From an uncultured Syntrophomonadaceae bacterium (lineage in GTDB: Bacteria; Bacillota; Dethiobacteria; DTU022; PWGO01): DNA of 64,000 nt. Under the pieces are notes generated by a model. The model made no database searches and was not told the origin of the DNA. It saw only the letters and a program-made list of their open reading frames with translations. Positions within the stretch are counted from its first letter, which is position 1; every line of letters starts with the position of its first letter. The stretch is taken from assembly GCA_964636865.1 (NCBI GenBank), contig CAZWVJ010000008.1:862-64861 (forward strand), read 5' to 3'. Positions 36,303 to 47,460 of the stretch are shown in pieces. A program made the position numbers and the translations under genes.

Positions 36303-37601
36303 ATGAAGATGGGGTGGCTATTTATGAAGGGGGAAAAGGGGAATGATAACCTTCAAACTCCTAATTTAGAAAACGGGACTAAGCATAATACAATTACTAA
36401 AGGTGATAAAGAGCTTTTATGGGCTATTAGTCGGGTTTCAGCTGCAATTAGCGGCCTGGGAAATCTTGATGCAATCTTAAAAGTTGGGTTGGATACCACT
36501 CTTAGGTTTATTAACGGAAGCAGGGGAGGTATTATGTTATTAAACGAAGAAAACGAGGTTCTTGAATACCGTGTTTCCCGGGGACTATCCAATCGTTTTT
36601 CCGAAGAAATGTATATGAAGTTAGGGGAAGGAATAGCCGGGAAAGTGGCTCAAAGCGGAAAAGCGACACTTGTAGATGACATTTCTGCGGAGCCTGATGC
36701 AACCCGCCCCGATTTAATCAGTTTAGAGGGGTTGAGAGCATTCGTGAGTGTTCCTCTAAAGGTTAAAGAAAAGGTTTTAGGGGTTATGAATTGTACCAGT
36801 CAAGAACCACACAAGTTTACACAAAAAGATTTTCACCTCTTACAATCTATCGGAGATCAATTGGGCATTGCTGTGGAGCAGGCCAAACTTCAAGAGCGGT
36901 TGAAAGAGAGTCGGGAAAGGTATCGGCAATTAGCGCGTCAGATTATCATCACCCAAGAAGAAGAGCGCAAGAAAGTAGCCCGTGATCTTCATGATGAAAC
37001 CAGCCAAATCATGGCGGGCCTGGCTCTTAATTTACAGGCCCTTATTGAGATGGCGGAAAGCATTGGCATTCAAGATCAAAATTTTAGAGAAATACTTCAA
37101 AAAACTCATGATTCAACAGTCCAAATCCATACGGAAATTAGCAGGATAATTGCGGATCTCCGTCCGACACAGCTTGATACTTTAGGCCTTGTGGCTGCTA
37201 TCCGTCAACACATCCACTCAAATATGGCTTCCCGGGGGATAAATGTCCATTTTGATCTGGATTCCATAGAGAAGCAACTTTTACCCGAAGAAGAATTAAG
37301 TATATTCCGATGGGCACAAGGTGCTGTAGGGAATATTATTCAACATGCGCAGGCAGAAAATGTGGAAGTATCTTTAAAACAGAAAGAAGAAAAGTTGATA
37401 TTAACTATCAGCGATGACGGAAAAGGGTTTGAAATTGACAAGCTCACTGAGATGAGAGAAAAAGGCCGGGGCTATGGCCTCTTGAACATGAAGGAACGAA
37501 TGATCCTCATCGGGGGGAATTGTTCTGTGCAAACACAACCGGGTGAAGGGACTACAGTCACTGCAGAACTACCGTTGTCCGGCAGAGAGATAGTAAAATA
37601 G
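36303..37601 (+). CDS. GAF-domain sensor histidine kinase (HisKA_3 / NarX-type)
   Basis: GAF-like N-terminal half. H-box ARDLHDETSQ. HATPase_c motifs (DDGKGF, GYGLLNMKER, GEGT). Confidence 0.85.
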   Translation: MKMGWLFMKGEKGNDNLQTPNLENGTKHNTITKGDKELLWAISRVSAAISGLGNLDAILKVGLDTTLRFINGSRGGIMLLNEENEVLEYRVSRGLSNRFSEEMYMKLGEGIAGKVAQSGKATLVDDISAEPDATRPDLISLEGLRAFVSVPLKVKEKVLGVMNCTSQEPHKFTQKDFHLLQSIGDQLGIAVEQAKLQERLKESRERYRQLARQIIITQEEERKKVARDLHDETSQIMAGLALNLQALIEMAESIGIQDQNFREILQKTHDSTVQIHTEISRIIADLRPTQLDTLGLVAAIRQHIHSNMASRGINVHFDLDSIEKQLLPEEELSIFRWAQGAVGNIIQHAQAENVEVSLKQKEEKLILTISDDGKGFEIDKLTEMREKGRGYGLLNMKERMILIGGNCSVQTQPGEGTTVTAELPLSGREIVK

Positions 37602-37674
37602 TAAAACATCAAAATTTGATTCCCTACATAAAGACTAATATATTTCATAACCTTTTGGGAAAGGTGAATTAAAA

Positions 37675-38328
37675 ATGGAAAGGATAGAGTTATTGGTAGT
37701 AGATGATCATGCTATTGTCCGCGAAGGCATCTGCGCCTTATTGGAAACTTCTCCCGAGACCGTGGTTTTGGGGGAAGCAGCTAATGGTTATGAAGCTCTG
37801 GAAATGCTCACAAAGTTACAGCCGGATGTAGTGTTAATGGATATAGTTATGCCGATTATGGATGGCTTTGAAGCTACCCGCCGTATTTGTAAAGATTACC
37901 CTTCGGTAAAAGTATTGATATTAACTCAATATGATGACCGGGAACATGTGTTTGAAATTATTGAAGCAGGGGCTGCCGGATTTATTAACAAATCTGTGGT
38001 GTCTACTGAACTAGTCAATGGTATCCGAGCGGTTTATCATGGCAATTCATTTTTATCTCCCCAGGTGGCAAAATACCTGGTGAATGACTTACAGACAGAC
38101 AATTCGGTGAAAAAAAACCGGGATCCTTTCTCAACTTTAACCGGCCGAGAACGAGAAATCTTTAAATTGCTGGCGGAAGGATATACCACCCGTGAGATAT
38201 CGGAATATTTGGTGTTAAGCCCTAAAACGGTTGAAGGACATAAAACAAGGCTTATGAGCAAACTGGATCTACATAACAGGGTAGATTTGGTAAAGTATGC
38301 TATGCGTAAAGGAATAATTGTTTTTTAG
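37675..38328 (+). CDS. NarL/LuxR-family response regulator
   Basis: REC domain (VVDDH, PDVVLMDIVMP, ILTQYDD, GFINKS) plus a LuxR HTH (LTGREREIFKLLAEGYTTREISEYLVLSPKTVEGHK). Confidence 0.9.
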   Translation: MERIELLVVDDHAIVREGICALLETSPETVVLGEAANGYEALEMLTKLQPDVVLMDIVMPIMDGFEATRRICKDYPSVKVLILTQYDDREHVFEIIEAGAAGFINKSVVSTELVNGIRAVYHGNSFLSPQVAKYLVNDLQTDNSVKKNRDPFSTLTGREREIFKLLAEGYTTREISEYLVLSPKTVEGHKTRLMSKLDLHNRVDLVKYAMRKGIIVF

Positions 38329-38426
38329 TTATAAATGCAAAATCCTCGCGTATGCATTGCCTTAACGAAAATTTAAATATCTCTTCGGCTTTATGCTGGA
38401 AATGAATAAAATTATGTAAGTAACCG

Positions 38427-38447
38427 AACCATTAACATGGTTTTTTT
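38427..38447 (+). terminator. short hairpin plus T7
   Basis: AACCAT-TAAC-ATGGTT followed by TTTTT. It lies about 100 nt after the regulator stop. Confidence 0.45.
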
Positions 38448-38463
38448 ATGTACTTGTGAAGTA

Positions 38464-38512
38464 CTCCTGCTTCTAAAAGCGGGAGCTTCCTGCTCAATAC
38501 GGCTCATGTCGC
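38464..38512 (+). repeat. intergenic repeat family B, copy 2
   Basis: CTCCTGCTTctaaAAGCGGGAG hairpin overlapping GGAGCTTCCTGCTCAATACGGCTCATG, the same core as at 20286. Confidence 0.7.
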
Positions 38513-38798
38513 AAGTTTACCCGGGCTCAAAGGGTAGAACCTACCCTGATTCTGTCATTTACCCAACCAGCTCTAAATTGGTTTTCGCTAAAGCTTCACC
38601 AATTTACCTCTAATTTGTATAGCAGGGGAATTCTTGGCTTTACGGTTAAAAAAGTAAGGGAATGCGGTCAAGAAAAAAGGGGGTATTTTTTCCATGTTTA
38701 TCTAGGGGAAACACCTCAAGACAAAAATTTTGATTTGCCATATAATTTAGAAAATTAAAGGTTGGCATTAAACCTTAACTAAAAAAGGAGGGTTAAAA

Positions 38799-39596
38799 AT
38801 GAAAAGGAAAGACTTAATTTTGGTGATAGACGATGATATGGAATTTGCCGGGTCACTGCAAGAAAATTTGCAGCTGTTGGAATGTGAAGCCATGATTGCT
38901 TCTGACAAAGAAAAGGCACGTCAAATTGCTCTTGCTCATAAGCCGAGCTTGATAATGTTGGGAACAATTTTGCCCCGGGGAGAAGCATATCGGCTTCACA
39001 GTTGGCTTAAACAAGCGCCGGGTTTGAAAGAAGTTCCGCATGTAGTATTAGACGCATCCCCCGAAAACCATTTGACCCGGGGGTGGCGCCGGGATGAGGG
39101 AATGCGTGTGGAAGCCGTAGAGTATTTTTGCAAGCCAATAAAACCTGAGTTTCTGGCCAATGAAATTTGGAAATTGATAGCTGTGGAAGCGACGGAAATA
39201 AAGGTGCTTATTGCCGACGATCATGCCATGGTCAGGGAAGGTATTCGCACATTATTAAACCTGCATCAGGATATTTATATCGTAGGCGAAGCTGTAAACG
39301 GCGCTGAAGCCGTAGATAAAGCGTTTCAGCTTTCTCCCGATGTGGTGCTGATGGATGTGGTGATGCCAGACAAGGATGGTATTGAGGCCACCAAACAGAT
39401 TGCAAATCAGTGTAAAGAGAATGTAAAAGTGCTCATGCTCAGCCAATATGATGATGAGCAAAATTTATTGGCAAGTACCCAGGCGGGCGCTCTTGGCTTT
39501 GTCTCCAAGAAAAGTGTAAGTTCCAAGCTTTTGGAAGCGGTTAGAACTGCCAGTCGGGGTGAAAAACCTGGCAATGGGCAAAGATGCGTGAGTTAA
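38799..39596 (+). CDS. tandem receiver protein: pseudo-receiver plus NarL-type receiver, no output domain
   Basis: REC1 has VIDDD, but the phospho-acceptor position reads PSLIMLGTILP (Gly in place of Asp). REC2 is canonical (IADDH, PDVVLMDVVMP, MLSQYDD, GFVSKKS). The protein stops right after RGEK, where NarL-type regulators continue into the linker and HTH. Confidence 0.75.
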   Translation: MKRKDLILVIDDDMEFAGSLQENLQLLECEAMIASDKEKARQIALAHKPSLIMLGTILPRGEAYRLHSWLKQAPGLKEVPHVVLDASPENHLTRGWRRDEGMRVEAVEYFCKPIKPEFLANEIWKLIAVEATEIKVLIADDHAMVREGIRTLLNLHQDIYIVGEAVNGAEAVDKAFQLSPDVVLMDVVMPDKDGIEATKQIANQCKENVKVLMLSQYDDEQNLLASTQAGALGFVSKKSVSSKLLEAVRTASRGEKPGNGQRCVS

Positions 39597-39640
39597 CCAT
39601 TCTGTTCATCTGCGGAATATAAATGGAAGGAGGTTGCTCA

Positions 39641-42322
39641 TTGCATTCAATAACAGTTACTATTAATCAACGAGTGGTAAGCGGCCATGCCGACATGACA
39701 ATTCTGGAATTAGCCCGGGAATCGGGCATATATATTCCCACACTTTGTGATGACCCAAATTTAAAGCCCGTGGGGGCATGCAGGCTTTGTTTGGTGGAAA
39801 ACGATAACACCGGTGCTTTAATGGCATCTTGTGTTACCACTGTAGCTTCGGATATGGTTATCAATACCGACTCTCCCAAGGTGCGACAATATCGCAAAAA
39901 TATCCTTAAGCTAATGCTGGCCAGCCACCCTGAAGCTTGTTTGATTTGCGATAAAGGTAACCATTGTAAATTGCGCCAAGTTGCTTCGGATTTAGGAGTG
40001 GGTTTAAATGAAATGGAAAAAATACCGCGTTTTGCAAGCGTAGAAGAATTAAACCCTTTTTTAACGAGAGACAATAGTAAATGTATATTATGCGGCAAAT
40101 GCATTAGGGCATGCCAGGAAATTGTAGTAGAAGGCGCTATTGATTATTACCAAAGAGGTTTCATTACCAAGCCTGCTACTTTCAATGATTATCCCCTTGA
40201 GCATTCAGAATGTACTTTTTGTGGAACCTGTGTGGCTATGTGCCCAACCGGCGCGTTAACGGAGAAAGATAAGCCGTATCAAGGAACCGGCAGGAAAACC
40301 GTGCGAACTACCTGTTCTTTTTGCGGGTGTGGGTGCCCTATATTGCTGGAAATAAAAGATAGCCATATAGTAAGAGCTTTACCGGCTGAGGGTAAGATCC
40401 CTCACAAGGGTGCCCTTTGTGTGCGGGGAAGTTACGGATTCGAATATATCTATAGCGAAGATAGATTAACCAAACCCCTGGTAAAGGGCAAAGATGGCTT
40501 TGAAGAAGTTTCCTGGGAAGAGGCTTTAACTGCTGCAGTTGCCGGCTTAAAGAAAGTTAAAGAAAATTACGGTCCATCTGATCTGGCAGTTTTGGGTTCT
40601 TCCAAGTGTACTAATGAAGAAAATTATCTTTTACAGAGATTTGCCCGGACTGTATTGGAAACAAATAATATTGATAACGGCAGCAGTCTTTATAATGCTG
40701 CAACCCGTGCAGGGTTGGCAGAAACTATTGGATTTTTAAGTGCTACAAACTTATTGGAAGCACTTGAACAAGCGGAAATAATTTTAGTGGTTGGCGCAGA
40801 TCCTACCGTAACTGCTCCTCAGGTGGCCTATGCATTAAAACGGGCTATCAGGCAGCACCATGCAAAATTAATCCTTATTGATTCTTCTCCTACAAAACTT
40901 GCCTCTTTTGCTCATCAGAGTATTTATCCCTACCCGGAAAGCGAGCTGGCATTGTTAAACAGCCTGTCGAAGATTATTATTGACGAAGGTTTATTAAATA
41001 GTGAATACCTGAGTCGCCAAACAGAAGGTTTTGCAGACTTTGAGGCAGCACTTGAAAACTTTTCTCCCGAAGATACAGCGGAAATTACGGGAGTTAATGC
41101 CATGGAAATCCGTAATGCCGCCCATCTTTATGCAGGGGCAGAAAAATCTGTAATAGTTTTTGGAGCAAGAGCTACCGGCACTGTAAATGGTGCGGAAAAT
41201 ATTATGGCAATTGCCAACCTGGCCCTTCTTACCAATAATGTGTGGGGCCGTGGTTGTGGGATCTATCCTCTTCAAAAAGAAAATAATGCCCAGGGTGCCG
41301 GTGAAATGGGTTCCTTGCCTAATTACTTACCCGGCTTTCGTCCACTTGGGGAAGTAACGGCTCGCCGAAATTATGAAGGCCTTTGGCAAAAAGACCTACC
41401 TTCCGTACCGGGATTAAGTGCATTGGAAATACTTTCTCAGGGCCATGAGGGGTCGTTAAAAGGCCTTTACATTGTGGGTGAAAATCCTGCTGCCGGGTTT
41501 CCCCAGTCTAAACTGGTTGAAGATACCCTGAAAGGATTAGAGTTCTTGGTAGTTCAAGATATGTTTTTAACGGAAACTGCCAAACATGCCGATGTAGTTT
41601 TACCCGCAGCGAGTTTTGCCGAAAAGGATGGCTCTTTTACTAATTTTGAAGGAAGAATAGGCTGGCTGCAACAAGCTTTTCCACCGAAAGGAGAAAGCCT
41701 GGCCGACTGGGATATTATTCTGCGTTTGGCTCGGCAATGGGGAGATCCTTTACCCTATTTTTCATTACAAGAAGTGATGAACGAAATTGAGGAATATGTG
41801 CCTTTTTATGAAGGGTATATTTACCCGGAAAAAAGATTGGGGGAGAAATGTTCTTACCTGGAAGAACGCCGCAATAGAATTTTTCAATCTTTAACGGGGT
41901 TTCCATGCTTTTCTATTCCCAATTATACTCCTCCATTACCTGAAAGAAATAGGAAATATCCGTTTTATTTAACAGTGGAGAAGGTGCTTCCTCATTTTGG
42001 CAGTGGAGTAAGAAGTGATAAAGCTCGGCGTTTGAAAAGTTTCTACCCCGAGCCTTATTTAAGTGTTTCCCCGGGAGATGCCCATGAATTGTCTTTGGTG
42101 TCCGGTGAACATGTTTATGTGAAATCTCCCTTTGCGCAAATAGAACTGGCTGTAAAAGTTTCTAATGGGATGCCCTCTGGAACATTATCTGTGCCTGTTT
42201 CTATTTCGGGAGTGATGGACCTTTTTGGTGCCGCTACCGTTTCGGAAAAGGATAATAACCGATGGGATTTTAGTTTGGCAGGTTGTTACGTTAATTTAGA
42301 AAGGGTGAGTCCAAATGAGTGA
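39641..42322 (+). CDS. formate dehydrogenase alpha / NuoG-like molybdopterin-fold Fe-S protein lacking the catalytic Sec/Cys-His pair
   Basis: N-terminal 2Fe-2S (CRLCLVE). HPEACLICDKGNHCKLR. Two 4Fe-4S motifs (CILCGKCIRAC, CTFCGTCVAMCP). MopB cluster motif TCSFCGCGC...LCVRG. Active-site stretch NNIDNGSSLYNAATRAGL. The TTG at 39641 lies 7 nt after GGAGG. The ATG at 39623 is the alternative start. Confidence 0.8.
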   Translation: MHSITVTINQRVVSGHADMTILELARESGIYIPTLCDDPNLKPVGACRLCLVENDNTGALMASCVTTVASDMVINTDSPKVRQYRKNILKLMLASHPEACLICDKGNHCKLRQVASDLGVGLNEMEKIPRFASVEELNPFLTRDNSKCILCGKCIRACQEIVVEGAIDYYQRGFITKPATFNDYPLEHSECTFCGTCVAMCPTGALTEKDKPYQGTGRKTVRTTCSFCGCGCPILLEIKDSHIVRALPAEGKIPHKGALCVRGSYGFEYIYSEDRLTKPLVKGKDGFEEVSWEEALTAAVAGLKKVKENYGPSDLAVLGSSKCTNEENYLLQRFARTVLETNNIDNGSSLYNAATRAGLAETIGFLSATNLLEALEQAEIILVVGADPTVTAPQVAYALKRAIRQHHAKLILIDSSPTKLASFAHQSIYPYPESELALLNSLSKIIIDEGLLNSEYLSRQTEGFADFEAALENFSPEDTAEITGVNAMEIRNAAHLYAGAEKSVIVFGARATGTVNGAENIMAIANLALLTNNVWGRGCGIYPLQKENNAQGAGEMGSLPNYLPGFRPLGEVTARRNYEGLWQKDLPSVPGLSALEILSQGHEGSLKGLYIVGENPAAGFPQSKLVEDTLKGLEFLVVQDMFLTETAKHADVVLPAASFAEKDGSFTNFEGRIGWLQQAFPPKGESLADWDIILRLARQWGDPLPYFSLQEVMNEIEEYVPFYEGYIYPEKRLGEKCSYLEERRNRIFQSLTGFPCFSIPNYTPPLPERNRKYPFYLTVEKVLPHFGSGVRSDKARRLKSFYPEPYLSVSPGDAHELSLVSGEHVYVKSPFAQIELAVKVSNGMPSGTLSVPVSISGVMDLFGAATVSEKDNNRWDFSLAGCYVNLERVSPNE

Positions 42323-42800
42323 AAAACTAAAAAAACCCGAAATAGATATGGAACAACTTACGCACATAGTAAACAGTTATAAGCATCAAAAATGGTCATT
42401 AATCCCTTTGGTGCAGGATATTCAAGATGAATTCGGATTTATTCCCCCTGAATCCATACCCGTTATTGCCGATGCTTTAAACCTTTTTCCCAGTGAAGTG
42501 CAGGGAGTAGTTTCTTTTTATGCACAGCTGTATACAGAGCCAAGGGGTAGAAACATAGTTCGCGTTTGCCGGGGAACGGCTTGTCATGTTCGTGGGGGCA
42601 AAACAGTGCTAAAACTGGTGAAAAAACAGCTGGGATTACAAGAAAACCAAACTTCTGAAGACCTGGAATATACTTTAGAAACAGTAGCATGCCTGGGTGT
42701 TTGTGCTCTTTCTCCCAGCATGGTTATAAATAACCAGGTATATGGAAATATGAACCCCAAAAAAATTAAGCTGTTGTTTAAGGGGGAGGAGGGTAGTTGA
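42315..42800 (+). CDS. NuoE/HydC-like 2Fe-2S thioredoxin-fold subunit
   Basis: VCRGTACHVRG...ETVACLGVCALSPSMVIN matches the NuoE [2Fe-2S] pattern. The start overlaps the upstream stop. Confidence 0.85.
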   Translation: MSEKLKKPEIDMEQLTHIVNSYKHQKWSLIPLVQDIQDEFGFIPPESIPVIADALNLFPSEVQGVVSFYAQLYTEPRGRNIVRVCRGTACHVRGGKTVLKLVKKQLGLQENQTSEDLEYTLETVACLGVCALSPSMVINNQVYGNMNPKKIKLLFKGEEGS

Positions 42801-42802
42801 TT

Positions 42803-45800
42803 ATGCAAAAACGCACTGTATTTGTTTGTCAGGGAACCGGGTGTTTTTCCAGTGGATCTCAGGCTTTATATGATCATTTGCTTGCGGAAGTAAAGCAGCT
42901 GCAAATTCAGGATACTGAAGTAGATTTTACCGGATGCCATGGATTTTGCGAGCAAGGTCCCATTGTCGTAGTAGAACCGGAAGGAATATTTTATACCCGC
43001 GTTCAACCTGAGGACGCTTCTGAAATAGCATTATCTCACCTGCAGAAAAACATACCGGTAGAGCGGCTCTACTATCGGGATCCTTTGAGTGGAGAGGCGA
43101 TACCTTATTATAAAGATGTTAATTTTTATCAAAAACAACAACGAGTAATTCTGGAAAACTGCGGGCACATAAACCCTGAAAATATTGAGCATTCAGTAAC
43201 AAAAGGAAAATACCGGGGATTGGAAAGGGCCCTGTTAAACTTATCTCCCCAACAGGTTATCGAAGACATAAAGGCATCAGGATTACGCGGACGCGGGGGA
43301 GCCGGTTTTCCCACAGCGCGCAAATGGGAATTTTGTTTTAACGCTCCCGGACCCAAAAAGTATGTGATCTGTAACGCCGATGAAGGCGATCCCGGAGCTT
43401 TTATGGATCGTTCCATCTTGGAAGCCGATCCTCATGCGGTAGTAGAAGGTTTAACTATCGCCGGCTATGCCGTTGGTGCTGATGAAGGATATATTTATGT
43501 GCGTGCCGAGTATCCTCTGGCAGTGAAAAGATTGCGTATGGCCATTAAAGAAGCCTTAGATAAAGGTTTTTTGGGTAAAAATATTATGGATTCCGGTTTT
43601 AATTTTACCCTGAATATTAAGGAAGGTGCCGGTTCTTTTGTGTGCGGTGAAGAAACAGCCCTTATAGCTTCTATCGAAAGCCGTCGGGGAATGCCCAAGC
43701 CTCGTCCTCCTTTTCCCGCTCAATCCGGGCTGGATGGAAAGCCAACGGTTATAAATAACGTTAAAAGCCTGGCAGCTGTTTCTGCCATTATGCGGCGTGG
43801 AGCAGATTGGTTTGCTTCTATGGGCACCGATAAAAGCCGGGGAACAGTAGTTTTTGCCTTAACGGGAAAAGTAGCCAATAGTGGACTGGTGGAAGTAGAA
43901 GCAGGTACACCACTATCTTCCATCATTTTCGATATAGGCGGGGGCATTCCTCGCGGCAAAAATTTTAAAGCTGTCCAAACCGGCGGTCCTTCGGGAGGAT
44001 GTATTCCGGCACCTTACATGGATACCCCCGTGGAATTTGAAAACCTGGCTCGCCTGGGATCCATTATGGGATCAGGTGGTATGGTGGTTTTGGATGAAAG
44101 TACTTGCATGGTAGAAATTGCCAGGTATTTTCTCAGCTTCACTCAATCGGAATCTTGCGGGAAGTGCACCCCCTGCCGCTTGGGTACAAGGCAAATGTTG
44201 GAGATATTAACCCGCATTACCCAGGGCTTGGGCCGAGACGGGGATATCGAAGCTCTCTACAATATTGCGAAAACAGTGAAGGAAGGTTCTTTATGTGGAT
44301 TGGGGCAAACTTGCCCTAACCCGGTTTTAACTACACTTGACTATTTTCGTAAGGAATATGAAATGCACATAAGAGAAAAAAAATGCCAGGCTGCAGTCTG
44401 CGATGCGCTTATGATTTCTCCCTGTCAACACACCTGCCCGGTGGGGGTAGATGTGCCTCGCTATGTGGAAGCTATTTCCCGGGGAGCATACCTGGAATCG
44501 GTAGATATAATCAGGGAACGTAATCCTTTTCCCGCTATTTGCGGGCGGATTTGCCATCATCCATGTGAAATGAGGTGCCGTCGTGGTGAACTGGATGACT
44601 CCCTGGCTATCAGGGCATTAAAACGTTTTTCCGGCGATTGGTATTTTGATAATATTCAAGAACTTCCTCCACCCGCACATTTTGAGCGCCTCTATCCGCA
44701 AAATATTGCCGTAGTTGGGGCAGGCCCCTGCGGTCTTTCTTGCGCATATTTTTTAGCTCAGATGGGCTACGGAGTTATCATTTTCGAAGCTTTACCTGTA
44801 GGCGGAGGAATGCTTTCTGTAGGTATTCCCGAGTTTCGGTTGCCTGAAAAAGTTCTCGAGGAAGAAATAAATTATATCCAAAAGTGTGGGGTGGAAATTA
44901 AGTATAACACCCCGATTAACGTAAATTTTACCATTGAAGATCTTAAGCAAAGCGGTTATGATGCTGTATTTATTGCCGCCGGAGCTCAAAAAAGCCAGCA
45001 AATAGGAATACCCGGTGAAATTGAAGATTTGGAAGGATTTTATTACGGATTACGTTTCCTTCGGGATGTAAAGATAGGCAAGAGGGTATCCATTGGCAAA
45101 AAAGTGATAGTTATCGGCGGAGGTAATGTTGCTCTGGATACTGCCCGAACGGCTGTTCGCATGGGAGCAGAGCAGGTTGAAATATTTTATCGCCGCACCG
45201 AGGAACAAATGCCGGTTTCGGAATTTGAATACAAAGAAGCTTTAGATGAAGGAGTGAACGTAAATTTTCTGGTGAGTCCTACGCGTATTGTAAGCAGTAA
45301 TTGGAAAGTAACGGGAATAGAGTGTATTAAAATGCAACTGGGTGAACCCGGCAGTGATGGAAGGCGCCGCCCGGTACCGGTATCGGGAACTGAATTTTTT
45401 GCCCCAGCAGATACTGTATTTGCTTCCGTGGGCCAGGCTCCCGATCTTTCATTTTTACCGAGTGATAGCGCCCTGGAACGTTCGAGGATGGAAACCCTGG
45501 TAGTAGATGAAAATAGTCTCTCTACAAATGTGCCGGGTGTATTTGCCGGAGGCGACTTTGTTACCGGCCCTGATATGGTAGTTGAGGCCATTGCGGCCGG
45601 AAGAAGAGGGGCGTTGGCTATAGATAAGTATTTTAAAAAAGATCCTTCGCGGGTTTTAATGTATGATATTCCAAAAAGTGTGACTGCGGGAAAAGAGGAA
45701 GATGAGGAAGAAGGCTCTGAAGACCTTGAAGAGGAATTGGAGGAAGAAACATGGCAACCACAATTTCGACCTGAAATACCACAGCTTTCCGTCCCCATTA

Positions 45801-45895
45801 GAAAAAAAAGCTTTCAAGAAACAGAATTGTGCTTTTCAGAAGAAGAAGCAGTTCAGGAATCGAAACGGTGCCTCAGATGTGATCTGGAAAGATGA
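42803..45895 (+). CDS. NuoF/HydB-like FMN/NADH subunit fused to a GltD/NfnB-like FAD/NAD(P)H oxidoreductase
   Basis: N-terminal 2Fe-2S module (VCQGTGC...GCHGFCEQGP). NuoF core (GLRGRGGAGFPTARKW, CNADEGDPGAF, ESCGKCTPCRLG). GltD-type NPFPAICGRICHHPCEMRCRR. Dinucleotide folds VVGAGPCGLSCAYFL and VIVIGGGNVALD. Acidic tail EEDEEEGSEDLEEELEEE. Confidence 0.85.
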   Translation: MQKRTVFVCQGTGCFSSGSQALYDHLLAEVKQLQIQDTEVDFTGCHGFCEQGPIVVVEPEGIFYTRVQPEDASEIALSHLQKNIPVERLYYRDPLSGEAIPYYKDVNFYQKQQRVILENCGHINPENIEHSVTKGKYRGLERALLNLSPQQVIEDIKASGLRGRGGAGFPTARKWEFCFNAPGPKKYVICNADEGDPGAFMDRSILEADPHAVVEGLTIAGYAVGADEGYIYVRAEYPLAVKRLRMAIKEALDKGFLGKNIMDSGFNFTLNIKEGAGSFVCGEETALIASIESRRGMPKPRPPFPAQSGLDGKPTVINNVKSLAAVSAIMRRGADWFASMGTDKSRGTVVFALTGKVANSGLVEVEAGTPLSSIIFDIGGGIPRGKNFKAVQTGGPSGGCIPAPYMDTPVEFENLARLGSIMGSGGMVVLDESTCMVEIARYFLSFTQSESCGKCTPCRLGTRQMLEILTRITQGLGRDGDIEALYNIAKTVKEGSLCGLGQTCPNPVLTTLDYFRKEYEMHIREKKCQAAVCDALMISPCQHTCPVGVDVPRYVEAISRGAYLESVDIIRERNPFPAICGRICHHPCEMRCRRGELDDSLAIRALKRFSGDWYFDNIQELPPPAHFERLYPQNIAVVGAGPCGLSCAYFLAQMGYGVIIFEALPVGGGMLSVGIPEFRLPEKVLEEEINYIQKCGVEIKYNTPINVNFTIEDLKQSGYDAVFIAAGAQKSQQIGIPGEIEDLEGFYYGLRFLRDVKIGKRVSIGKKVIVIGGGNVALDTARTAVRMGAEQVEIFYRRTEEQMPVSEFEYKEALDEGVNVNFLVSPTRIVSSNWKVTGIECIKMQLGEPGSDGRRRPVPVSGTEFFAPADTVFASVGQAPDLSFLPSDSALERSRMETLVVDENSLSTNVPGVFAGGDFVTGPDMVVEAIAAGRRGALAIDKYFKKDPSRVLMYDIPKSVTAGKEEDEEEGSEDLEEELEEETWQPQFRPEIPQLSVPIRKKSFQETELCFSEEEAVQESKRCLRCDLER

Positions 45896-45910
45896 AAAGG
45901 AGGGATAAAT

Positions 45911-46579
45911 TTGAAATCTATTACCAGGCTAAAACCTTATGCAGAAATTATGCAGCAGCTGGAAGATTGTAACCGAGTTTTTATAGTGGGATGTGGCACT
46001 TGTGCTACGGTGGTTCAAACGGGGGGGATAGAGCAGGTAGAAGCTATGAAAGAGCAACTGCAGGAATCTGGAATGCTGGTAACCGGTTGGACCGTTATAC
46101 CCACTGCCTGTGACGAGATGACTTCTGCTTCAACCGCTGAATATGAATCTGCCATCCAAAGCGCAAATGGGATATTGGTCATGGCTTGTGCCCTGGGGGT
46201 GCAGAGGTTAAATCTTTATACAGGCAAACGAGTCTTACCTGCTCTTGATACTTTGTTTATGGGTTTAGAAGAAAGTCCCGGCTATTTTGTGGAAGCTTGC
46301 GACCAATGTGGAGAGTGCATTCTTGGCTATACGGCAGGGATTTGCCCGGTAACTGCCTGTCATAAGGGTTTACTTAACGGTCCGTGTGGTGGTACCAACA
46401 AGGGTAAATGTGAAGTGGATCAAGAAAAAGATTGCGCTTTTACTCTCATTTATCAGAAGTTGAAAGACCTGGGCCGGCCGGATTTAATGAAACATTATCA
46501 CCCACCTAAAAATGCGCAGGTATGGCCTAGGCCAAAAGTAAAGATTCTGGAAGCAAAGGAGACAGAACAATGGATTTAA
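45911..46579 (+). CDS. metV: MetV, methylene-THF reductase-associated Zn-ribbon/Fe-S subunit
   Basis: GCGTCATV near the N-terminus and CPVTACHKGLLNGPCGGT, typical of MetV. TTG start after AAGGAGGG. It lies 15 nt after the previous gene and overlaps metF. Confidence 0.8.
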   Translation: MKSITRLKPYAEIMQQLEDCNRVFIVGCGTCATVVQTGGIEQVEAMKEQLQESGMLVTGWTVIPTACDEMTSASTAEYESAIQSANGILVMACALGVQRLNLYTGKRVLPALDTLFMGLEESPGYFVEACDQCGECILGYTAGICPVTACHKGLLNGPCGGTNKGKCEVDQEKDCAFTLIYQKLKDLGRPDLMKHYHPPKNAQVWPRPKVKILEAKETEQWI

Positions 46580-47460
46580 AATTTAAAAGTTTACTTGATT
46601 CCGGAAAGTTTGTAGTGACTGCAGAGGTGGCACCGCCTAAAGGAATTGAGCTTGAACAGATGAATCATCATATTGAGCTTCTTAAGGAGAAAGTAGATGC
46701 TTTAAATGTAACCGATCACCAAAGTTCAGTTATGCGTTTTCCCTCCATGGGAGGCTGCCTTGCCATTAAGGAAGGAGGCGGTGAACCCATTCTGCAGATG
46801 ACCTGCCGTGATCGCAACCAGATTGCCCTGCAGTCTGATCTCCTGTTAGCATACTCCCGGGGCATAAGAAATGTGCTTTGCCTCACCGGGGATGCTATGC
46901 CGGTGGGAGATCACCCTCAAGGCCGCGGTGTTTTTGAAATGGACTCTGTTCAATTATTGCATTGTATAAACAGGTTGGAAGAAGGTTATGACATGGGGGG
47001 CAATGAATTAAAGGGAGGAGTCTCTTTCTGTAAGGGAGCAATAGTTACTCCGGAAGCAGATCCTATAGAGCCTCAATTAAGCAAATTTGAAAAGAAAGTT
47101 GAAGCGGGTGTGGAATTTATTCAGACCCAGGCCATCTATGATCTGGATAATTTTGCCGCCTTTATGGAGCATGCCCGACAATTTTCTGTAAAGGTAATAG
47201 CCGGAATTGTTTTACTTACTTCTGCGAAAATGGCCAGATATATGAACAACAACGTTCCCGGCATTTTCGTGCCGCAACACCTTATTGATGAACTGGCTGA
47301 TGCTCCCAAAGGAACTGCTCTGCAGAAAGGAATTGAAATTGCGGGCCGCATGATTGCCACTTTACATAATGATGCCCTCTGTGATGGAGTCCATATCATG
47401 GCCATTAACAAAGAAGAAGTTGTCCCGGAGATTTTGGAGGCTGCGGGTATTCAATCATAA
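46570..47460 (+). CDS. metF: methylenetetrahydrofolate reductase (acetogen/anaerobe-type MetF)
   Basis: FVVTAEVAPPKG N-terminus, LNVTDHQ, CLTGD and FIQTQAIYD motifs. 296 aa. Confidence 0.85.
   Translation: MDLKFKSLLDSGKFVVTAEVAPPKGIELEQMNHHIELLKEKVDALNVTDHQSSVMRFPSMGGCLAIKEGGGEPILQMTCRDRNQIALQSDLLLAYSRGIRNVLCLTGDAMPVGDHPQGRGVFEMDSVQLLHCINRLEEGYDMGGNELKGGVSFCKGAIVTPEADPIEPQLSKFEKKVEAGVEFIQTQAIYDLDNFAAFMEHARQFSVKVIAGIVLLTSAKMARYMNNNVPGIFVPQHLIDELADAPKGTALQKGIEIAGRMIATLHNDALCDGVHIMAINKEEVVPEILEAAGIQS

Follow-up and report, generated by a model that had tools for sequence, protein, structure and literature searches.

A formate dehydrogenase-like subunit with a replaced active site, probably the iron-sulfur scaffold of an NAD(P)H-linked MetVF complex

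The stretch of 64,000 nucleotides studied here (the window), from contig CAZWVJ010000008.1 of an uncultured Syntrophomonadaceae bacterium, carries at 39623-42322 a gene for a protein which resembles the alpha subunit (FdhA) of a formate dehydrogenase (FDH) and in which the residues of the formate site are replaced. This protein, called the relic below, is encoded at the head of an operon ending in the genes for a methylene-tetrahydrofolate (methylene-THF) reductase, MetV and MetF, which raises the question of what function it has there. In energetic terms no node of the Wood-Ljungdahl pathway is less understood than the methylene-THF reductase step, and the electron carriers used there decide whether acetogens, complete-oxidising sulfate reducers and syntrophic acetate oxidisers can conserve energy. 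The relic is best taken for a catalytically dead FdhA, most likely the iron-sulfur (Fe-S) scaffold of an as yet uncharacterised MetVF complex which would be NAD(P)H-linked and perhaps coupled to ferredoxin. The features of the gene are the following.

39623-42322, + strand: FdhA relic (P0002), 899 amino acids; residues 1-224 are an N-terminal domain with one 2Fe-2S and three 4Fe-4S sites, residues 225-899 a full-length MopB fold; catalytic residues replaced.
40691-40696, + strand: TAT AAT, Tyr357-Asn358, replacing the Cys/selenocysteine (Sec)-His metal-ligand dyad (HMMER alignment and codon reading).
41273-41290, + strand: Q-K-E-N-N-A replacing R-G-Q-N-N-V; Gln551 corresponds to Arg587 and Ala556 to Val592 of FdsA of Rhodobacter capsulatus.
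40424-40426, + strand: codon of Arg268, a Lys in catalytic FdhA, NasC and FdnG-like enzymes; it adjoins the fourth Cys of the MopB 4Fe-4S site.

When the relic was compared with all PDB chains by HMMER, the top matches were alpha subunits of NAD-dependent FDHs (9wxb_B, E 3e-147; 6tg9_A, E 2.5e-143). In the motif block the alignment to R. capsulatus FdsA (6tg9_A) is gap-free with an offset of 29; Tyr357 is equivalent to Cys386 and Asn358 to His387, while Gln551 and Ala556 take the places of Arg587 and Val592. In the R. capsulatus enzyme Cys386 is the ligand of the molybdenum, His387 and Arg587 are catalytic and Val592 faces the sulfido ligand (PMC7171172). Of the residues that mark an FDH alpha subunit, the relic thus has neither the Cys or Sec ligand nor the catalytic His, Arg and Val. 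The DNA of 40664-40723 reads aat aat att gat aac ggc agc agt ctt TAT AAT gct and so on, with Tyr357 encoded at 40691-40693, Asn358 at 40694-40696 and, further downstream, Gln551 by caa at 41273-41275. The first-pass annotation, which had put Tyr-Asn by eye at the Sec/Cys-His position and had read the ligand codon as TAT followed by Asn in place of His, was correct in both respects; the active-site Arg has Gln551 as its equivalent, so that catalysis fails there too. Neither an in-frame TGA nor a frameshift was found in the open reading frame (ORF) 39623-42322, and Sec recoding or a frameshift at the ligand codon is ruled out, the codon being a plain TAT within an open frame. As the metal ligand and the catalytic His, Arg and Val are all lost, the relic should not oxidise formate, and it is very probably not a formate dehydrogenase.

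The electron-transfer part of the protein is complete. None of the 20 cluster ligands, 19 Cys and His102, has been lost: C42, C53, C56 and C70 for the 2Fe-2S site, H102, C106, C109 and C115 for the His-ligated 4Fe-4S site, C154, C157, C160 and C164 and then C197, C200, C203 and C207 for two further 4Fe-4S sites, and C231, C234, C238 and C266 for the 4Fe-4S site of the MopB part. In 50 homologues each of these is invariant, except C164 which is nearly so (at least 90%), and the statement of the first-pass annotation that the N-terminal and MopB cluster motifs are intact holds for every ligand.

Curated models place the relic outside both of the families it recalls. The FDH alpha subunit model TIGR01591 gives 548 bits against a cut-off of 666.25, while the Sec-containing FdhA encoded elsewhere in the same genome scores 910 bits, and the NuoG model TIGR01973 gives 362.8 bits against a cut-off of 470.05. 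Pfam recognises Molybdop_Fe4S4, Molybdopterin and Molydop_binding, that is, a MopB fold with its proximal 4Fe-4S site; the Molydop_binding cap scores 41.5 bits in the relic versus 111.7 in a catalytic relative (L019, see below). A Foldseek search with the AlphaFold2 model of the relic returns the alpha subunits of NAD-type FDHs first (7vw6_A, 8j83_A, 9ktl_A, 6tg9_A), followed by FdhH and NapA, with NuoG clearly lower. Judged by sequence and predicted fold, the relic is a descendant of the NAD-type FDH alpha subunits and not a NuoG. The term NuoG-style used in the first-pass annotation is acceptable as a functional analogy, the closest one available, since NuoG/Nqo3 of complex I is likewise a cofactor-less, MopB-derived Fe-S wire beside NuoE and NuoF; it fails as a statement of descent, as the best PDB matches are FdsA and M. 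extorquens FDH1 and the relic is far apart from NuoG/Nqo3 in sequence and fold (173-248 bits). The expectation that automated annotation would mislabel the gene was half right: among its homologues the JGI name is "formate dehydrogenase alpha subunit", but the NCBI name is "molybdopterin-dependent oxidoreductase".

A homologue search of a 5.8-billion protein set gave thousands of relatives, the best 120 of which are 54-92% identical to the relic. Among the homologues in this identity range Tyr-Asn is found in 105/121 and Gln at the Arg position in 119/121, and in the relic's own sub-clade Tyr357 is kept in 134/139, Asn358 in 116/139 and Gln551 in 135/139. Since all three residues are kept across the sub-clade, the substitution is neither chance nor decay. 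We then compared 80 loci from species-representative genomes, which split into catalytic forms and relics. In the catalytic forms, many of which contain an in-frame TGA for Sec, the motifs read H-C-A-R-L-[C/U]-H and P-L-R-G-Q-N-N-V-Q-G, and NuoE and NuoF are encoded upstream. Relics of the Dehalococcoidia type have N-G-S-R-L-Y-[N/S/G] and L-Q-R-E-N-N, and those of the Desulfobacterota type have N-G-G-Y-x-S-G and A-[R/K]-E-N-N; in the latter the Tyr357 column holds Ser, His, Asn, Phe or Pro, and Tyr in 1/20. In trees from which the trait columns had been removed all relics form one clade, with support of 100 in FastTree (82 rows, one state change) and in IQ-TREE under LG+G4 and LG+C20 PMSF (posterior mean site frequency), the IQ-TREE values being quick-search SH-aLRT (Shimodaira-Hasegawa-like approximate likelihood ratio test) supports. 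This clade extends over three phyla (Chloroflexota, Desulfobacterota and Bacillota) at 40-92% identity with the operon structure kept.

What selection has kept in this clade was followed at invariant positions, defined as those at least 95% identical among 41 catalytic FdhAs. The numbers kept, by domain, are listed below.

N-terminal Fe-S domain, 32 invariants: window relic 32, Dehalococcoidia type 32, Desulfobacterota type 32.
MopB Fe-S domain, 10 invariants: window relic 9, Dehalococcoidia type 9, Desulfobacterota type 7.
MopB domains II/III, 123 invariants: window relic 80, Dehalococcoidia type 89, Desulfobacterota type 65.
Cap domain, 38 invariants: window relic 12, Dehalococcoidia type 15, Desulfobacterota type 10.

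In the MopB Fe-S domain the window relic departs from the invariants only in the Lys to Arg268 replacement, at what we take to be the position of Lys44 in E. coli FdhH; this replacement is shared by 123/139 relics of the Dehalococcoidia type and 19/20 of the Desulfobacterota type. Mean pairwise identities for the N-terminal domain, MopB domains II/III and the cap are 0.45, 0.62 and 0.55 in the catalytic enzymes, 0.72, 0.61 and 0.45 in the window's relic sub-clade, and 0.71, 0.56 and 0.42 in the Desulfobacterota-type sub-clade. The order of domain conservation is thus reversed toward the Fe-S domain, which identifies the electron-transfer part as what selection keeps. Together with the four replaced active-site residues and the score below the TIGR01591 cut-off, this shift of constraint bears out the first-pass proposal of an electron-transfer scaffold in place of a working FDH.

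A scaffold of this kind may or may not still contain the cofactor of its ancestors, a complex of molybdenum or tungsten with two molybdopterin guanine dinucleotides (bis-MGD). Bis-MGD contact residues are not listed in the main text of the papers on the R. capsulatus FDH (PMC7171172) and on M. extorquens FDH1, and cofactor positions were here defined by conservation across FdhA, NasC and FdnG-like enzymes and not from coordinates. The core set consists of the 105 catalytic-FdhA invariants that are shared with a true NasC (1121 bits, over the cut-off), the only true NasC that a phylum-wide search for such comparators gave. Out of these 105 positions the window relic keeps 69, the Dehalococcoidia-type clade 82, the Desulfobacterota type 61 and a truncated NuoG-like paralogue in the host genome 58. 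As an independent control, the host's distant periplasmic, Sec-containing FdnG-like enzyme keeps 76/105, including 27/36 of those lost in the window relic. At 25 positions the Sec-FdhA, the L019 FdhA, NasC and the FdnG-like enzyme agree or nearly agree, and the window relic differs at 24; among the changes are the Lys adjoining the proximal cluster, N393, E396, P421-R422, R787, H860 and K886. Several of these positions are occupied by a variety of residues in the closest relatives of the window relic, as would be expected if selection for cofactor binding had ceased. On balance the window relic appears to have given up binding Mo/W-bis-MGD, a conclusion which we favour with some reserve.

Several observations weigh against the view of the relic as a cofactor-free electron carrier. 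The AlphaFold2 model has a mean pLDDT (predicted local distance difference test) of 66, high in the MopB core and low in the Fe-S regions. Arsenite oxidase binds Mo-bis-MGD without any protein ligand, and a missing ligand alone is no proof of a missing cofactor. Most relics outside the Bacillota sub-clade retain the D-P-R motif along with several other shared positions, and pterin binding may persist in some members of the Dehalococcoidia type. Neither the MopB nor the cap domain has been shortened, both are still moderately conserved and Tyr-Asn-Gln is nearly invariant, which indicates that the old pocket still does something. An alternative is that a pterin or bis-MGD is bound without a Cys/Sec ligand and acts as a redox relay, or supports a new reaction in the Tyr-Asn-Gln pocket. 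In its favour are the full-length domains, the nearly invariant Tyr357, Asn358 and Gln551, the D-P-R motif and the many positions kept in most Dehalococcoidia-type members, and the fact that the host makes the molybdenum cofactor, its MoaA scoring over the cut-off. We consider this alternative unlikely in view of the 24/25 differences at positions common to all the enzymes compared, several of which vary freely among close relatives, and of the retention of only 12/38 cap invariants. Moreover, in the Desulfobacterota-type sister clade, which has the same operon, the Tyr357 column is varied, so that this Tyr is not required for the shared function.

The preferred reading of the relic as an Fe-S scaffold of a MetVF complex depends on its neighbours. 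The relic is the first of five tightly packed genes, preceded by three regulatory genes, and this layout of eight genes is found also in the closest homologous loci.

36303-37601, + strand: GAF-HisKA_3-HATPase sensor kinase of the upstream regulatory module (Pfam); at the same place in the closest loci, L200 and L202.
37675-38328, + strand: NarL/LuxR-type response regulator (Pfam Response_reg and GerE); upstream also in L200, L202 and Dehalococcoidia loci.
38799-39596, + strand: double-receiver protein (REC-REC) lacking an output domain, encoded immediately before the relic (Pfam, two Response_reg stretches).
42315-42800, + strand: NuoE-like 2Fe-2S subunit of thioredoxin fold (PF01257, 155 bits; NF005722 over the cut-off); its start overlaps the relic stop.
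42797-45895, + strand: NuoF::GltD fusion of 1032 amino acids with a HydB-type flavin mononucleotide (FMN)/NADH module and an NfnB/GltD-type flavin adenine dinucleotide (FAD)/NADPH module (Pfam).
45911-46579, + strand: MetV (DUF5981), the Cys-rich subunit of MetVF (PF12225, 118 bits).
46570-47460, + strand: MetF, methylene-THF reductase (PF02219, 149 bits); begins within the end of metV, start and stop overlapping; the genome has one other MetF gene.

NuoE and the NuoF::GltD fusion lie downstream in 37/39 relic loci, and MetV lies downstream in 21/21 relic loci with enough flanking sequence versus 2/34 catalytic loci. The NuoF part of the fusion (residues 4-540) has HydB as its best PDB match (7t2r_B, 743 bits), followed by StnB and NfnB and far above FdsB and Nqo1; the GltD part (residues 539-1029) matches best the N-terminal parts of NfnA (9n5u_A, 9bov_A) and of StnC (8oh5_C). 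No membrane-arm nuo gene was found by Pfam in the window operon, and on this count too the relic does not classify as a NuoG. For MetV no solved relative was found by sequence. A complex prediction of the MopB part (225-899) with MetV scored 0.00, which is no answer and bears neither way on binding.

From its gene neighbourhood the relic is probably part of one complex with MetVF. It descends from an FDH alpha subunit of the cytoplasmic, NAD(P)H-linked kind and keeps the whole Fe-S chain of that subunit: the 2Fe-2S cluster, the His-ligated 4Fe-4S, two ferredoxin-type 4Fe-4S and the MopB-proximal 4Fe-4S. Made together with NuoE, NuoF::GltD, MetV and MetF, and taking the position of NuoG, it may pass electrons between the NADH/NADPH flavin sites and MetVF, in whichever direction they flow. 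The resulting enzyme would be an NAD(P)H-linked and possibly ferredoxin-coupled (bifurcating or confurcating) methylene-THF reductase. The chance that it is indeed bifurcating we put at somewhat short of even.

Of the characterised enzymes the StnABC/NfnABC complexes of the Bfu family (8oh5, 9bov, 9n5u) have the same modules: a NuoE, a HydB-type NuoF, a GltD-type FAD/NADPH module and a non-catalytic subunit similar to NuoG and FDH. The related NuoG-like protein StnC, although annotated as FDH, showed no formate activity (PMC7483475). This identity of inventory allows for the first three genes of the operon to form a self-contained NADH/ferredoxin:NADP+ transhydrogenase which is co-transcribed with MetVF and not joined to it, and there is a precedent in S. 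ovata, where the stn genes are downstream of metVF without forming one enzyme (PMC7483475). We regard this as improbable, because MetV-MetF follows the relic in all 21 loci with room, in Chloroflexota, Desulfobacterota and Bacillota alike and often with overlapping or very short junctions, and because in the nearest catalytic relatives (L019 and L037) FdhA is in an operon with MetV and without NuoEF, which points to a direct partnership. The window operon also differs from Stn in its architecture. The GltD module is on the C-terminus of NuoF in the window and on the N-terminus of the NuoG-like subunit in Stn; the MopB fold is complete including the cap, whereas alignments to StnC and 9bov_A end near residue 564 of the relic; and MetVF is attached.

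That the relic is still an FDH or a CO2 reductase, using an unconventional metal ligand such as a tyrosinate, would agree with the fold, with the best matches and with the name that one pipeline gives its homologues, but is very improbable given the loss of His, Arg and Val besides the ligand, the score below the curated FDH model, the inactivity of StnC on formate (PMC7483475) and the presence in the host genome of a separate, intact Sec FDH. A decaying, functionless gene, which the long branch of the window relic (0.69-0.77) and its greater loss of shared positions than in its clade might suggest, is scarcely credible with an intact frame of 899 codons, 32/32 Fe-S invariants, 20/20 cluster ligands and a clade conserved with its operon across three phyla, and a pseudogene was rejected on this conservation.

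The likeness of the relic to known systems is best described part by part. The NAD+-dependent FDH alpha subunits (FdsA, 6tg9; M. extorquens FDH1, 7vw6) are its best match (E 1e-143 to 1e-147; Foldseek E 1e-54 to 1e-61), with the same domain order, five Fe-S sites and NuoE-like and NuoF-like partners. Unlike in these enzymes, Cys386, His387, Arg587 and Val592 are replaced, the cap has eroded, NuoE/F are encoded downstream of a leading relic in a reversed gene order, and the catalytic end would be MetVF and not the MopB site. The whole arrangement was noticed before: the "X type" methylene-THF reductase has genes for NuoEFG homologues upstream of metFV, is widespread in Desulfobacterales and Chloroflexi, may bifurcate and is described as unstudied in the passage concerned (Yi et al. 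2021, PMC8515935). The window genes 39623-47460 match this type, for which Dethiosulfatarculus sandiegensis, Desulfobacterales and Chloroflexi are named, in their adjacency. In the passage the "NuoG" is not recognised as a former FdhA whose catalytic residues have been exchanged, and the fusion of NuoF with GltD is not mentioned; unlike the hosts cited there, that of the window copy is a member of the Bacillota, in which it is an accessory second MetVF. This one-paragraph mention (PMC8515935) was all that we found in the literature searched on the biochemistry of NuoEFG-MetFV, and the relic-MetVF operon was not described in the Chloroflexi literature that we consulted (including PMC5736913).

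Two further proteins show a comparable fate. In Dehalococcoides an FDH-like protein with Ser at the ligand position is part of the organohalide respiration complex and is thought to be a module other than an FDH (PMC5736913); like the relic it is a MopB-type FDH homologue minus the Cys/Sec ligand within a larger redox complex. It differs in being a periplasmic, membrane-associated protein of the FdnG type, from an unrelated lineage, whose partners are the Hup hydrogenase and a reductive dehalogenase. SfrAB of Geobacter sulfurreducens combines an FdhA-like subunit with a GltD-like NADPH subunit and is an NADPH oxidoreductase and not an FDH; the likeness is one of description only, and to our knowledge SfrAB has neither NuoE/NuoF nor MetVF.

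The recognition of the relic as a dead scaffold keeps metabolic reconstructions from counting a false FDH, and it defines what to purify and assay, in an operon which is widespread in Dehalococcoidia and Desulfobacterota. It also makes the relic a clean natural case of a molybdoenzyme converted to an Fe-S wire, the presumed origin of NuoG of complex I, with likely intermediates, catalytic FdhA-MetV(F) operons, still extant. L019 comes out as sister to the relic clade in the two IQ-TREE runs alike (SH-aLRT 97 and 93). This locus, from Dehalococcoidia bacterium CG2_30_46_9 (L019:8016-12286), encodes an FdhA that retains Cys-His-Arg and, joined to it through overlapping junctions, MetV and then MetF; NuoE/NuoF are absent within 8 kb. 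The operon looks, from its gene content, like a formate-driven methylene-THF reductase, of which we know no description; the corrinoid activator RACo is encoded upstream of the three genes. The next group outward includes L037, with an intact FdhA directly before a MetV-like gene. In this locus, from Dehalococcoidales W73_232 (L037:7548-10906), the FdhA is of the Cys form, the MetV-like gene (DUF5981) is followed by a histidine kinase instead of MetF, and an aldehyde:ferredoxin oxidoreductase gene is found upstream. FdhA and MetV-like proteins may be partners in general. With L019 and L037 as the nearest catalytic relatives, the trees, whose supports are those of quick searches only and whose root depends on a single paralogue, suggest as a lead that the FdhA-MetV partnership predates the death of the formate site.

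A stepwise change of identity can be drawn from these loci, a tentative scenario which we hold to be possible rather than probable. At a first stage a working FdhA with MetV(F) as its direct partner, the state seen in L019 and L037, would have been a formate-driven methylene-THF reductase. At a second stage the pair would have gained the NuoE and NuoF::GltD module while the formate site was silenced, and the Tyr-Asn-Gln pocket with the proximal 4Fe-4S cluster would have been re-used as the site of MetV docking and electron exit. If this is true, the product would be a new ferredoxin-coupled (bifurcating or confurcating) reductase that addresses the energetic problem of the methylene-THF step of the Wood-Ljungdahl pathway.

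The host genome (2.2 Mb, 97.7% complete) belongs to the Bacillota, its RpoB having 73-75% identity to that of metagenome-assembled genomes of Syntrophomonadaceae and Peptococcaceae, yet the nearest sequenced relatives of the relic are mostly from Dehalococcoidia. Its true Sec FdhA (910 bits, over the cut-off) is on contig C4 with its own NuoE and NuoF. A MetV match is present in 29/30 relatives of the same order, always including a copy of the type found in the acs cluster, and a MetV of the operon type is present in 11/30, in all three families and at 66-97% identity. As the acs type is general and the operon type occurs in 11/30, the complex would be an accessory second methylene-THF reductase in this lineage.

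The regulatory genes and the operon show some variation among loci. Homologues of the double-receiver protein (240-310 bits) are encoded directly upstream of the relic in L001-L004, L006, L007, L009, L011, L012, L014, L017 and L046, and in L200 and L202 the protein has 265 amino acids. The regulatory trio 36303-39596 is in the same order in L200, L202 and many Dehalococcoidia loci, and appears to be a dedicated module which travels with the complex. In the Desulfobacterota-type loci L021, L024, L027, L029, L030, L032, L039, L040, L044, L056, L059 and L062 an extra MetF-like gene of about 300 codons, with 117-143 bits to the window MetF, is directly upstream of the relic, and the MetV-MetF pair is also found downstream wherever the locus extends far enough.

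Elsewhere in the host genome, contig C4:55877-66342 (L169) carries two tandem NuoE/NuoF sets on one strand. One is with the real Sec FdhA, and the second is with an 800 amino acid NuoG-like protein which has a degenerate ligand site (H-I-S-R-Y-H-Y) and is without the cap domain. On contig C7:55392-67830 (L168:3393-15831) the acs cluster CooS, AcsB, AcsC, AcsD and AcsE is followed by the second, stand-alone MetV-MetF and then by a thiolase, a crotonase and a 3-hydroxyacyl-CoA dehydrogenase, so that Wood-Ljungdahl and beta-oxidation genes are in one row. Contig C13:5910-37271 contains about 18 paralogous radical-SAM ORFs (about 330-500 amino acids) with weak matches to the MoaA model within about 30 kb.

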